Shown here in pieces: positions 1 to 4,538 of a stretch of DNA of 4,538 nt; within the stretch, counting starts at the first letter, position 1, and each line of letters starts with the position of its first letter. Origin of the DNA: a virus (taxonomy: Duplodnaviria; Heunggongvirae; Uroviricota; Caudoviricetes; Autographiviridae); the IMG/VR virus record IMGVR_UViG_2541047861_000003. One strand, written 5' to 3'. The translations under genes were made by a program, and so were the position numbers. The notes under the pieces were generated by a model. That model was not told the origin of the DNA. It made no database searches and worked only from the letters and a program-made list of their open reading frames with translations.

Positions 1-98
1 GAGTCTTGAGTCTTGAGTCTTGAGTCTTGAGTCTTGAGTCTTGAGTCTTGAGTCTTGAGTCTTGAGTCTTGAGTCTTGAGTCTTGAGTCTTGAGTCTT
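1..98 (-). repeat. Heptanucleotide VNTR: 14 perfect tandem copies of GAGTCTT (+ strand), i.e. AAGACTC on the coding (-) strand; array is cut by the window start so total copy number is unknown
   Basis: Direct reading: positions 1-98 are exactly 14 x GAGTCTT with no interruption. On the - strand all three frames are open through the array; on the + strand every frame hits TGA (GAG TCT TGA). Confidence 0.98.
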
Positions 99-103
99 AA
101 CAT
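1..103 (-). CDS. neuO: Polysialic acid O-acetyltransferase NeuO, 5' end only (start codon plus repeat-encoded N-terminus); partial, continues beyond window start
   Basis: ATG at 103..101 with AGGA at 114..111 (7-nt spacing). Frame reads ATG TTA then (AAGACTC)n, giving M-L-(RLKTQDS)n. This matches the recalled neuO 5' heptad-repeat architecture of prophage CUS-3. Gene body is not in the window, so identity rests on the repeat signature and genomic context (directly downstream of an endosialidase tailspike). Confidence 0.75.
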   Translation of the reverse strand, partial: MLRLKTQDSRLKTQDSRLKTQDSRLKTQDSRLKT

Positions 104-110
104 ATTAGTA

Positions 111-191
111 TCCTACGTTATTTTACCACTAGTTACTTTTCTTGTCATTAAAAAGCATTTAAATTTTTATATTTAATTTCGTTGACGTCAA
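111..191 (-). promoter_or_regulatory. neuO upstream region: Shine-Dalgarno AGGA (114..111) and candidate sigma70 elements (ATGACA 148..143, 17-bp spacer, TAAAAT 125..120; alternative TTGACG 191..186 with AAAAAT/TAAAAA about 16-17 bp downstream)
   Basis: Hexamer matching by eye on the reverse complement of an AT-rich spacer. The proximal candidate would place the transcript start inside the SD, so the distal candidate may be the real one. No experimental support. Confidence 0.3.
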
Positions 192-256
192 TGTTTTTTG
201 CCAATGTACTTACTTCTTTATGTGATCAGTTCATATTTTTGACGCCAACGAAACAT

Positions 257-3202
257 TTAGTGCTTCCCTTCTATTAAGTCTAACCTAGCTTTTATTCTTT
301 CTATTTCTCTGCGCTGCCATGCTGCCTCGATATAGAATAAGAGATCAGGTCTGACCCCCCATCTAGATCCTGCTGGCGTTATTTCAACGCGCTCAATGAT
401 GTCTTCCATTACCATCACTGGATTATCATCCTCATCAACAATGATGCTCCCGTCATTATCAGTCAGCGGCATTTCCCTTTGGCCAGTAATGACGTCATCA
501 TATACTGCGGGATAATCGTCATAGCAAAGAAAGGCATAGCGGCATGTTGTGCTTTCTTCTTCCATGAGTCCGTGAGAAATAAGAACATCACGAAGTTGCT
601 GCGCGATTACACCATGATGTATCCTCGCCCCTTCTTCCCCCTTTATAGCGACAGCGTTCAGCCATTTATAAGCGATATACCTGACGTCACCCCAGGCATC
701 CAGCAATGTTTCGTCAGGAGAGACCGGCTCTGTCTTTAATGTTCCGTCACTGGTAACCACAGGATTGGAGCCAAGATAAACTATCGAGAACCTGTTTCCC
801 GGACCACCAAGAGCATTTACATTATCAAGATAAGGTTTAACATCTCCGTTCTCAAAAAGATGTTCGAGTGCGTTATATACCGCGCGACGTGGAGTACTGC
901 TTCTGGAACCATGCAACGTTATCATTGCACCATCTGCTGAAGACGTTGTTTCACCGCCGCTAACGATTAATCTCTGAGCGGTAACATCATCAGACGGTAC
1001 TTTCTTCGCAATAATGGCGTAATTACCCTCAAGTTTGACTTCCGCGCGAACTTGTCCTGATGTACCTGCATGGACAGTCAGTGACTGGACGGCAACATCA
1101 TCTGTGAAATCAACGGGTACAGGAACCGTCCTCACGCCTGACGTCGACATAAAAGTAGGAAGCGTTCTGTTAGGAGTGGCTCCGTAGACAAAATCCCTTG
1201 AAACAAATTCTTCCTGTTTAATTTTCACCCTGAAACAATACAAATCAGCCGGGTGACCATCGTGAACATAAGGATATTTTCTGTTGTTATCCCCTATGCT
1301 CCATGGGTTTAGAAAGTCTTCCCCACCGAAAATGTAGTACAGCCAGTTGTCTTTGATACAAACTGAACCAACACCAACCGCAGAGTTAACTATTCCGCCC
1401 TGATAAATCTGATCAGTAACATTAACCCACTCTACATTATCCAGACTCCACTCATTGACGTTAACTCTGGTCATAAATGTTCTTGGATAGTTTCCTGCAT
1501 AACGGTTATCAGGTTCTCCTCCTTCCCACTCACCAAATGCGCGCTCACTGCCAAAAATAATCAGCTCATCGCCAACTTTGGCAAAAGGAAGGTTTGAGTG
1601 ATGAACATTATTTGGGAAGCGAAGAGAATTCCATGATGTACCTAAATCAGAGCTTCTGTGCAATGAACTACCGGGTTGAGTACTTAATGTCCCCCTGGTC
1701 GTCAGATACAGAATGCCATCATAATATTTTACACATGGCTCAGATGCATTCGCCTCATATTCTGCAGGTATGCGTCTGCGAACAAAGCTACCAGGAGAAC
1801 CGAAAGCATCAGAGAAATAGAGTATCCCAAGCTCGCGTGGACCAATATCACCATTATGGTAGCCAACAGCAAAACTGTTATCGCTAATCGTCGCAAAACT
1901 GTGAATCTCAGTAACAGGAGTGCTTCCGTCAACAAAAGAAGGAATAGTTCCAAGACTGGTTTTTCTCCATGGTGACGAGTGAAATGATGTACCAAAACTC
2001 CAGTATCTACCCTCGTTATTCTGATCCACATCCTGGGTATTTTGCGTCGTAACTGTAAAAGTATTTTTATCAATAACAGTAGTCACCGTCATATTCCCGG
2101 TAACACCTGTAACACCAGAGTTTGAGAAGTTGACAAAATCACCAGCAAATAATCCGTGATCAGTAATGCGAATATAAGCGACTTGCTGATTTGCTGCTTT
2201 CGTTATACCACCATAAACGCGAAGGCTGCGACTCATTGGGCGATCCCACAACTCTGCAACCTGCAGTTTATTTCCGCTCACGGTCCGCGTCTCAATTACA
2301 GCAAAAAGGCGATTTCTGACAACCCCCATACTCATGCAGTGATAGTTAACTGTGGGATAGTTTTCATGTAAATCTGTAAGCCATTCCGGCGTTGTCCAGG
2401 TCTTCCCGTCATCTCCTGAGCGAACCCATGCAACATGGAGGTTATTTACACCATGGCGGTCTCCAGCCATAAAAGGCGCATAGATGACATTGTCATATAC
2501 AAACGTTTTATCCTGCGTCCAGGCGTTGTACCACGGTGTATCTGTAATTTTAAATAACTCTCCCTGGATAAAATCTTCAGAAACATAAAAAAGAGGCTGA
2601 CCCGGTATTCTCTCAAATAAAAAACGAGCATTTTTAAATCGACTGACATCTGGAAGAGTTGATACTTTAAAAGTAAGCCCTCGCCCATCTATCTTTTCAC
2701 CACCTGTTGCAACAGAAAGTAATTCTGATAGAGCTGATGTATCATCATGAACACCATCACCAATAGCCCCCCAACCTCTTACATCATAACTGTCTCTCCA
2801 TCTTGCTATCTGAAGTTTTGGGTATTTATTCGCTCCATCTGGGTCTTCTAATTGCTGCCGTAGTTGATCAGGATCATACTTCAGCACATTCTGGAAATAG
2901 AACTGCTGTACGCCATACGCATCGTACACAGCCATAGAATGGCCTTGCACAGTTACGAACTTGGCAATCCGTCCGTTATATACAGGGTAACCAGCAGCGT
3001 TAATGATGATTGGTTGCGAAACAGGAACGTGAGAGCCGTCTTCGTTCTCTACATAAACCTGAATCCGGTTTTCAGGATTTACCGGGTCAGTGTCAATTTT
3101 ACCGATATAAATTTTGCCATTGGCTACGGCTTTAAAAGAACGCGCCATAGTGAAGAGTTGCGAAGGCATCGATACAATCACATTGGCTGTAATGTCTGTC
3201 AT
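257..3202 (-). CDS. Tailspike protein, endo-N-acetylneuraminidase (endosialidase) type, with P22 gp9-like N-terminal head-binding domain and C-terminal intramolecular chaperone domain
   Basis: 981-codon ORF, ATG 3202..3200 with GGAG 8 nt upstream, stop TAA 259..257. N-terminal ~113 aa (MTDITANV...VLKYDPDQ) closely resemble the recalled P22 tailspike N-terminus. Two bacterial-sialidase Asp-box motifs S-x-D-x-G-x-T/S-W are present: SGDDGKTW (aa 262-269, nt 2396..2419) and SSDLGTSW (aa 517-524, nt 1631..1654), both verified against the nucleotide sequence. C-terminal region resembles endosialidase chaperone domains. Confidence 0.92.
260..790 (-). other. Tailspike C-terminal intramolecular chaperone-like domain; predicted autoproteolytic Ser818 (nt 749..751) with Lys823 as partner
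   Basis: Motif [13 protein letters not shown] with Ser and Lys 5 residues apart, followed by ...[10 protein letters not shown]...[13 protein letters not shown]..., resembling the recalled serine-lysine dyad region of endosialidase/tail-fibre chaperone domains. Exact domain boundary is approximate. Confidence 0.55.
2864..3202 (-). other. Tailspike N-terminal head-binding (virion attachment) domain, P22 gp9-like; module junction at the YDPDQ motif (nt about 2864..2881)
   Basis: Similarity to the recalled P22 gp9 N-terminus ends right after ...NVLKYDPDQ; the sequence downstream is unrelated to the P22 receptor-binding domain. Confidence 0.8.
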
Positions 3203-3260
3203 TTAATTTGCTCCAGATGCAAAGAATCGCCGCAGCATGGCCACGGTGAATTTTGGGCAT

Positions 3261-3283
3261 AAAAAAACCCAGCCGAAGCTGGG
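3261..3283 (-). terminator. Rho-independent terminator downstream of ant (between ant and the tailspike gene)
   Basis: On the - strand: CCCAGC-UUCG-GCUGGG (6-bp GC-rich stem, UUCG tetraloop) followed immediately by seven U (+ strand 3261-3267 is AAAAAAA). Lies 19 bp after the ant stop codon. Confidence 0.75.
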
Positions 3284-3302
3284 TCGTTGCGTTGGTTATC
3301 TG

Positions 3303-4205
3303 TCAGTAATTATGTACTGAAGGAGGTAATTCTTTATTCTTAAGTCTCATCCATGCGGAAAGATTCGTTGGTCCGTCTGGCTCATTGATATCAACATCTC
3401 GTGTGTGATTGATTAAAACGTCTCTCGCCATATCGATAATACGGGAGAACTCATAACCGCAGTCATGACATCTGCCGGAATAGTTCGATTGAATTTGTTT
3501 TAGCGCCGGATACAGTTCGCGGAATAATGCCTGTGAGCGGTTGGCATAATCCCATAGCCATACAAGGCTGTTTGCTTCTTTTGCAGAAAGCTCGTTGGTT
3601 TTCTTCTCTTGTTTGCCGATGAACTCACCTTCAAGCACTACCCTGTGGATGTACTCTACTGCTTGTGGTATCTGAGATGCATCAAGCTCTTCAATACTTT
3701 CCACATTGAAACGCTGATGAATCATTGCATAAGCTTCTGGGTACATTAGATGCTTTTTGCTGACTAGCATATTTACAGCATCACGAAGCGGAGTCCTGTC
3801 ATCAACAGATGTTTTCTTCCGTGCATTTGCTGCCTCTCCCTTTGTCCAGTAGTCATGCAGCACAGTAAAGCATTCTTCCTGGTACTGAATCAGTTTATCG
3901 CGGATGTCAGCACGAACTTTCTCAGGGTTGATGCTGAACAGCCATCCATTTAACTTCTTCAAAGGAAGGCAGAGTAGCTTACGAAGCTTACCATCAGCGG
4001 CAACCATGTTCATATGAACACAGTTGAATTTGCTAATCTGCTTCATGAGTTTTGTTTGCTGCGTTGACCAGCTCATTCCGAGGTTTTCAACGATTGGCTT
4101 CATCGCAACATATGCAACTCCGGCAGCCATGGCGGTGATAATTTGCTGACCGTTGAATGGCACGTAAGAGGTGTTCACTGCTTCTAAAATTGCTATACTA
4201 TTCAT
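3303..4205 (-). CDS. ant: Antirepressor Ant (P22 immI-type), 300 aa
   Basis: ORF in the supplied track runs 3303..4271 from a GTG. Preferred start is the internal ATG at 4205..4203 ([21 protein letters not shown]...), with GGAG at 4219..4216, giving 300 aa, which matches my recollection of P22 Ant length and N-terminus. Stop TGA at 3305..3303. Confidence 0.8.
4191..4199 (+). promoter_or_regulatory. Candidate extended -10 promoter (TGcTATACT) on + strand inside the first codons of ant, oriented antisense to ant (Psar-like)
   Basis: TG-n-TATACT at 4191-4199; no good -35, consistent with an extended -10 promoter. Predicted start about 4205-4208, opposite the ant start codon and SD. Confidence 0.35.
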
Positions 4206-4287
4206 GTTGGTTTTTCTCCACGGATTTACCGACAACCGAAGCCCTGACTGTTCCAGCAGTTGGGGCTTCACTGTTTTGATTTCTTTG
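4206..4287 (+). ncRNA. sar: Predicted sar-like small antisense RNA complementary to the ant translation initiation region
   Basis: Candidate promoter at 4191-4199 and a strong terminator-like hairpin 4238-4269 followed by a U-rich tract, delimiting a transcript of roughly 70-80 nt antisense to the ant SD. Matches the recalled arrangement of P22 sar RNA. Prediction only. Confidence 0.4.
4238..4287 (+). terminator. Intrinsic terminator-like hairpin for the antisense (sar-like) transcript
   Basis: + strand RNA GAAGCCCUGACUG-UUCCAG-CAGUUGGGGCUUC forms a 13-bp stem including two G.U wobble pairs, followed by ACUGUUUUGAUUUCUUUG. On the - strand the two wobble pairs become C.A mismatches, so the structure is stronger on the + strand. 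Confidence 0.45.
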
Positions 4288-4443
4288 CCGCATCAAGCAT
4301 CACTTCTGAAAACGTGCGCTTGCCACTGAATACTCTTTCTCTTCTCAATTTTTCGTTCGTGCCAAATGATTCGCCATGAACAAAATTTGGTCTTAAAATG
4401 GTAATCGCAATCTCTTTGACTACTGCATCCAAGCGAATCACAC
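4268..4443 (-). pseudogene. Possible 3' remnant of a gene upstream of ant, truncated by the IS insertion (58 codons open to the IS boundary, no usable start codon)
   Basis: - strand frame reads ...[56 protein letters not shown], with stop TGA 4270..4268 overlapping a GTG (GTGA) in the ant frame. Does not match recalled P22 Arc. An open stretch of this length could also arise by chance (about 6-7 percent expectation). Confidence 0.25.
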
Positions 4444-4538
4444 TGAACCGCCCCGGGAATCCTGGAGACTAAACTTCCTGAGAAAGAGGTAAACAGGATG
4501 ACTAAAAATACTCGTTTTTCCCCCGAAGTCCGTCAACG
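4444..4538 (+). mobile_element. IS3-family insertion sequence (IS629/IS1203/IS3411-like), left terminal region; partial, continues beyond window end
   Basis: Sequence from 4444 begins TGAACCGCCCCGGGAATCCTGGAGAC..., a typical IS3-family terminal inverted repeat starting with TG, followed 54 bp later by an orfA start whose product begins MTKNTRFSPEVRQ, which I recall as the IS629-group OrfA N-terminus. Confidence 0.7.
4498..4538 (+). CDS. IS3-family transposase OrfA, first 13 codons only (partial)
   Basis: ATG at 4498 with GAGG 8 nt upstream; translation MTKNTRFSPEVRQ runs off the window end. Confidence 0.7.
   Translation, partial: MTKNTRFSPEVRQ

Follow-up and report, generated by a model that had tools for sequence, protein, structure and literature searches.

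The 4,538-nt stretch of DNA analysed here, called the window in the following, holds a sar gene beside the antirepressor gene ant. Judged by its sequence, the element at 4206-4276 is sar itself, a regulator that is already known, and not a new sar-like candidate. We consider it very probable that the locus as a whole is the sar of immI in a P22-like (Lederbergvirus) prophage of E. coli K1, with the action against Ant that is proposed below. Our analysis establishes the family membership of the element, its position, its complementarity to the ant leader, its structure and a strand asymmetry that is conserved among homologues. The features of the window are collected in Table 1.

Table 1. Features of the window (positions counted from its first letter)
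Feature	Position	Strand	Basis and remarks
Tailspike, 981 aa	3202-257	-	ORF
ant, antirepressor, 300 aa	3303..4205	-	ORF list; Pfam P22_AR_N E 4e-45, P22_AR_C E 2e-28
Psar (candidate promoter)	4171..4199	+	Extended -10 TGcTATACT 4191-4199, weak -35 GTGTTC 4171-4176; within the first ant codons, opposite strand
sar antisense RNA	4206..4276	+	Start G4206 as in the Rfam model; predicted 3' end in the U tract, ~4273-4278
sar stem-loop I	4206..4233	+	6-bp stem 4206-4211/4228-4233; MFE fold and Rfam consensus structure
ant Shine-Dalgarno GGAG	4216..4219	-	10 nt upstream of the ATG; read from the sequence
sar stem-loop II, intrinsic terminator hairpin	4238..4269	+	14 pairs, 4-nt loop; fold and terminator scan
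Terminator U-rich tail ACUGUUUUGAUUUCUUUG	4270..4287	+	Alignment; identity drop after 4270
orf57, 57 aa	4268..4441	-	ORF list; PHROG 17642 E 1e-43
IS3-family element, left end	4444..4538	+	Collinearity with S88, APEC O1 and other genomes ends at 4443

Identity of the element

When the whole window was scanned against Rfam at a permissive threshold, RF00262 (sar RNA) was the sole match. It lies at 4206-4272 on the plus strand and scores 83.9 bits (E 2.7e-17; gathering score of the family 43) over model positions 1-68 of 68, i.e. at full length. With the same covariance model, homologues span 57.8-97.8 bits: P22 sar reached 97.8, epsilon34 sar 95.6 and L076, the most divergent homologue found, whose Ant is 72% identical, 57.8. 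The match abuts the ATG of ant (4205-4203, minus strand) and spans the GGAG of its Shine-Dalgarno sequence; the gene is labelled 'phage antirepressor Ant' on an identical RefSeq sequence. An earlier sequence-only reading of this DNA had proposed a sar-like antisense RNA across the ribosome-binding site of ant. Given the full-length RF00262 match, the alignment with P22 and epsilon34 and the agreement of its position with the Psar and sar annotated in epsilon34, this interpretation was correct.

From the promoter region to A4270 (4169-4270), the alignment contains five differences from P22 and two from epsilon34. The element shares with P22 sar the covariance family, the promoter -10, a start one base past the ant ATG, two stem-loops, the anti-Shine-Dalgarno in loop I and a terminator stem with identical wobble pairs. 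The substitutions are C4176 in the -35 and C4221 in loop I (both A in P22), two bases in loop II, and C4230 (T in P22), which makes a stem-I G.U into G-C. Similarity to both phages ends at A4270, the base after the stem. Past the stem, ACUGUUUUGAUUUC is found here and the unrelated AACUUUACGCG in P22, where the tail runs into arc, whereas here it runs into a 57-aa ORF between arc and ant. In X01916, the immI record of P22, the match to sar occupies 532-599, which is the exact gap from the arc stop (531) to the ant ATG (600), and a ribosome-binding site is annotated at aligned 586-589. The epsilon34 record (EU570103) is 98.2% identical over window positions 4100-4270, including the C at 4176, and annotates Psar, a sar misc_RNA, arc, mnt and ant. 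Its sar ('small antisense regulatory RNA') maps to 4207-4274, starting one base after the start in the Rfam model. Epsilon34 differs from the window in its P22-type tail and in having arc directly upstream.

P22 sar was reportedly the subject of Liao et al. 1987 and Wu et al. 1987 (Genes Dev) and of Schaefer and McClure 1997 (RNA). Its experimental characterisation is covered by reviews (PMC12197685, PMC2629481). The locus is thus a textbook cis-antisense regulator rediscovered, which an Rfam scan annotates automatically, and its discovery value is little; Psar, the terminator and the strand-specific wobble design can be recovered by a reader from the sequence alone.

Promoter, fold and strand asymmetry of sar

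An extended -10 in antisense orientation, TGcTATACT, had been read at 4191-4199 and is indeed present there, within ant codons 3-5 (Ser-Ile-Ala). The earlier placement of the promoter stood as far as this -10 on the plus strand is concerned, but the beginning of the promoter region had to be corrected to about 4171. At a spacing of 17 bp, the -35 hexamer GTGTTC agrees with the consensus at two of six positions, and for this reason we class Psar as an extended -10 promoter. Its location in the first ant codons, convergent with Pant, is what the family leads one to expect of a candidate promoter. Because of the weak -35, a generic sigma-70 scan, which reported 2 promoter-like sites versus 2.4 expected, missed Psar; P22 has the very same extended -10, and we therefore do not count this against it. 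Over 4171-4199 the alignment with P22 shows C4176 as the single difference, and TGcTATACT is the same in the window, P22 and epsilon34. The -10 is intact in L076 too, though the neighbouring codons differ there. The epsilon34 record carries a 'promoter, located by similarity with P22 Psar' at the positions aligned to 4171-4199.

The Rfam model puts the most likely first base of the RNA at G4206, one base beyond the ATG of ant; for the 3' end we predict a position in the U tract, at about 4273-4278. By homology, the length of the RNA would be about 68-73 nt, rather than the 70-80 nt expected by the sequence-only reading. P22 sar measures 68/69 nt (PMC12197685). Both the MFE and the centroid fold match the two stem-loops of the Rfam consensus structure. 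The loop of stem-loop I bears the anti-Shine-Dalgarno CUCC (4216-4219). For stem-loop II, a 13-bp hairpin with a U-rich tract had been described at 4238-4287; both are present, and folding gives 14 pairs, i.e. the 13 plus a closing U.G. Three pairs of this stem are G.U wobbles (4245.4262, 4246.4261 and 4251.4256). The hairpin is followed by ACTGTTTTGATTTCTTTG, which is more U-rich than the P22 tail, AACUUUACG. As the 3' tail differs from that of P22, the RNA length may differ as well, with the 3' end possibly lying a few bases further. In the terminator scan, the sar hairpin was the lone plus-strand terminator-like site near here. Peptides from the plus-strand ORFs at 4157-4279 and 4171-4329 were considered as another reading of this interval and rejected because conservation stops at 4270.

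The two strands of this DNA do not encode equally stable structures. The pairs U4245.G4262 and G4246.U4261 are wobbles on the plus strand and C.A mismatches on the minus strand, as had been claimed, and the closing pair U4251.G4256 and the stem-I pair U4208.G4231 likewise become C.A on the minus strand. Folding of both strands, which had been suggested as a check, found the difference in stability: the hairpin alone reaches -23.5 kcal/mol (z -6.35) on the plus strand versus -17.7 (z -3.1) on the minus strand, and the 82-nt stretch 4206-4287 reaches -32.4 kcal/mol (z -5.1) versus -22.4 (z -2.35). The ant-sense copy of the hairpin is followed by GGTTGTCGGTAAATCC, which contains no U tract, and the terminator scan reported no minus-strand terminator at the sar hairpin.

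We extended this comparison to 80 IMG/VR loci encoding relatives of Ant, from which 29 distinct sar sequences were folded. The sar strand was the more stable one in 29/29 variants, with means of -23.1 versus -17.7 kcal/mol for the hairpin and -30.1 versus -20.6 for the full RNA (sar versus ant strand). The selective stability of the structure in the antisense transcript, claimed for one sequence, therefore holds for the window and recurs in every folded variant, and the strand-specific design is worth about 5.4 (hairpin) and about 9.5 kcal/mol (full RNA) across natural variants. Among 24 distinct sequences, three pairs (alignment columns U40.G58 and U46.G52 in stem II, U3.G26 in stem I) are wobbles in all 24 and G41.U57 is one in 23, whereas the fourth stem-I pair is G.U in 13, G-C in 10 and A-U in 1. 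A wobble confined to the ant strand occurred at none of the pairs of these 24 sequences. Variation falls mainly in the two loops and the linker; pairing is kept in 99.3% of cells for stem I and 99.4% for stem II (24 variants), and L076 carries one compensatory change, G-C to A-U in stem II. In a covariation test on the 24 distinct homologues, 12-17 of 500 shuffles reached the observed values. Covariation support is weak because these homologues are on average 94% identical, and with the test thus underpowered the structure is supported by thermodynamics, the Rfam model and the published P22 work. When 44 distinct sequences were compared with the window, identity amounted to 0.95-0.98 over 4170-4270 and to about 0.3 thereafter. 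Nevertheless, a U tract follows the hairpin on the plus strand in every flank class, despite the unrelated flanks.

These data bear on two other ways to explain the motifs. First, the hairpin could act chiefly in the ant mRNA as a stabiliser, a processing site or an element of translational coupling, the Psar-like sequence being a by-product of the ant codons. The minus strand does still fold at -17.7 kcal/mol, and the -10 overlaps coding sequence, so that its conservation is confounded with constraint on the protein. However, every wobble favours the plus strand and no G.U exists solely on the ant strand; the plus-strand U tract recurs in all flank classes, and the -10 is kept in L076 where the codons around it have changed. 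Moreover, P22 sar is experimentally established (PMC12197685), and small-RNA sequencing of P22-infected cells recovered sar reads (PMC13397905). We therefore regard a role chiefly in the mRNA as highly improbable. Second, promoter-like and terminator-like motifs could co-occur by chance in an intercistronic region, an idea to which the background rate of the consensus promoter scan lends some support. It deserves next to no credence, being refuted by the Rfam E-value, by fold z-scores of -5.1 to -6.35 and by a block that is 95-98% conserved in 44 distinct sequences beside unrelated flanks.

Proposed control of Ant synthesis

As an antisense regulator, sar would act as follows. RNA polymerase would start at Psar, in ant codons 3-5 and pointing against ant, and the transcript from about G4206 would end at the hairpin 4238-4269 and its U tract, yielding the RNA of about 68-73 nt with two stem-loops. 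This RNA would pair with the leader of the ant mRNA, to which its complementarity is complete because sar is cis-encoded, cover the GGAG and block translation initiation, and Ant synthesis would thereby be limited. Pairing would presumably begin by loop-loop contacts. Transcripts from Pant need passage in the opposite direction to reach ant, and since the same DNA must let them through, the terminator would be active on one strand only. Such one-way termination could be achieved by the wobbles that turn into C.A on the ant strand together with the absence of a U tract from the ant-sense copy.

In P22, sar pairs with ant mRNA, interferes with translation initiation and limits antirepressor synthesis while lysogeny is established (PMC12197685, PMC11016777, PMC2629481). 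Repression of Ant by sar pairing in the present prophage is predicted from P22, the one phage from which it is known. Transcription and the exact RNA ends, too, are what we would carry over from P22 or infer.

Two other phage RNAs invite comparison. The c4 RNA is processed from the transcript of its own target, has no convergent promoter and pairs via short segments, not over its whole length. Like sar, c4 of P1 and P7 is a small RNA that blocks ant synthesis around the ribosome-binding site, and its complementary sequences likely lie in RNA loops (PMC12197685). In sequence and family it is unrelated to sar. OOP RNA pairs with the 3' end of the cII mRNA and leads to RNase III cleavage, not to occlusion of a ribosome-binding site. 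Like sar, the OOP RNA of lambdoid phages is short and cis-antisense, has a promoter of its own as well as an intrinsic terminator, and acts on a regulator of the lysis-lysogeny decision (PMC12197685). Its sequence is unrelated to the sar of the window, in which Rfam finds sar alone.

Gene slot, insertion element and prophage context

Across the 80 related loci, the 'ant moron' contains a gene slot of variable content, and the sar terminator forms its fixed edge. This moron has been described for P22-like phages (PMC2629481). Beyond 4270, no fewer than ten unrelated flanks occur among the 44 distinct sequences. In four flank types sar borders directly on an Arc-family gene, whereas in seven others arc is followed by a small ORF (57-89 aa) that differs from type to type, is unrelated to the others and has a start overlapping the arc stop. 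These slot ORFs were seen in loci L005-L084 at about 1050-1438. All seven end at the same TGA inside the sar terminator stem, and their final residues are encoded across the U tract of the terminator.

In the window, the ORF between arc and sar is orf57, which matched neither Pfam nor NCBIfam. Read on the minus strand, A4270 and the two final bases of the stem form its TGA stop (4270-4268), and the last one or two codons of orf57 are covered by sar in antisense. In S88 and phiv205-1, which are free of the IS described below, orf57 is annotated as a hypothetical protein and lies between arc and sar, its GTG start overlapping the stop of the Arc-family gene; a divergent 82-aa Arc/RHH-family gene is also present. 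Among 50,697 phage records, orf57 occurs in one, phiv205-1, and it belongs to a stretch common to 127 complete E. coli genomes, mostly K1 ExPEC/APEC.

One could go further and view the sar terminator as the fixed right-hand joint of the arc-ant slot, with sar being antisense also to the 3' ends of the cargo ORFs and splitting ant from cargo expression. Pairing with a polycistronic arc-cargo-ant mRNA, and possibly its cleavage, would then set ant apart from the cargo. We think this unlikely. If true, slot cargo such as orf57 or a ClpX zinc-finger look-alike would represent new small phage proteins under immI control. The variable slot, together with the IS that cuts off Pant, may be of modest value for work on phage mosaicism.

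A few slot ORFs have recognisable features. The ORF at 1256-1438 (plus strand) of L050 encodes a homologue of the C4 zinc finger from the N-terminus of ClpX, here as a stand-alone protein (PF06689, 42.2 bits versus a gathering score of 27), and that at 1214-1438 of L026 shows a weaker likeness to the same domain. Similar CxxC...CxxC motifs are found in L007 and L064, without a Pfam match. The S88 region contains a gene for a ClpP-like protease beside an mnt-like gene.

In the window itself, the immI region is cut at 4444 by the IS3-family element, and arc and mnt lie outside the view. The insertion point of the IS lies one codon ahead of the arc stop, with Pant and arc on one side of the element and orf57, sar and ant on the other. 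The transposase gene of the IS begins MTKNTRFSPEVRQR at 4498 and points away from ant. We take the element to resemble IS629/IS1203. Two pieces of the junction query are 99% identical to strain E10, where they are part of an annotated IS3-family transposase; E10 carries the same IS about 0.5 kb away, beside an mnt-like gene. A search for the identical junction in 5,426 complete E. coli genomes found none, and the insertion therefore seems to have occurred recently and in one lineage. The IS probably blocks Pant transcripts from reaching ant, as the whole element would need to be crossed. With Pant cut off in this way, this lysogen may contain little target RNA for sar, and the regulator may stand idle.

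Hence sar could here be a relic, intact in sequence but silent and with no regulatory effect, since the IS uncouples ant from Pant. The position of the insertion, the transposase pointing away from ant and the apparently recent, single-lineage junction all fit this idea, which we regard as a doubtful but serious possibility. On the other hand, the sar-ant region is 100% identical (3150-4443) to that of at least 24 IS-free E. coli genomes, e.g. S88 and APEC O1, among the 127 complete genomes that hold at least 80% of 3150-4443, so the sar gene itself has not decayed. Read-through or outward transcription borne by the IS could also still supply ant mRNA. A silent sar would in any case concern activity in one host and not the identity of the element, which we continue to read as the sar of immI.

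Taken as a whole, the window covers the 'ant moron' at the end of the late operon of a P22-like E. coli K1 prophage, with an ant region of the 'APEC-1' type. The CUS-3 reference genome (CP000711) was considered as the source of the sar region and ruled out, as it matches window positions 1-3635 only. This match ends at about 3635, within ant; sar and the two-thirds of ant nearest the promoter therefore constitute a different mosaic module, which is 94-98% identical to epsilon34. CUS-3 appears to be without arc, according to the epsilon34 paper (PMC2629481).

At the other end of the window, bases 1-98 consist of at least 14 tandem copies of GAGTCTT (AAGACTC on the minus strand), clipped by the window start. 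They correspond to the neuO heptanucleotide region of the CUS-3 record, which has 19 copies, and we take them to be a phase-variation tract. Between ant and the tailspike gene, two terminator-like hairpins were found on the minus strand: GACCCAGCTTCGGCTGGGTT followed by TTTTTAT at 3285-3266, and a second, weaker one at 3246-3230. The former aligns with a rho-independent terminator that the epsilon34 record places after ant.
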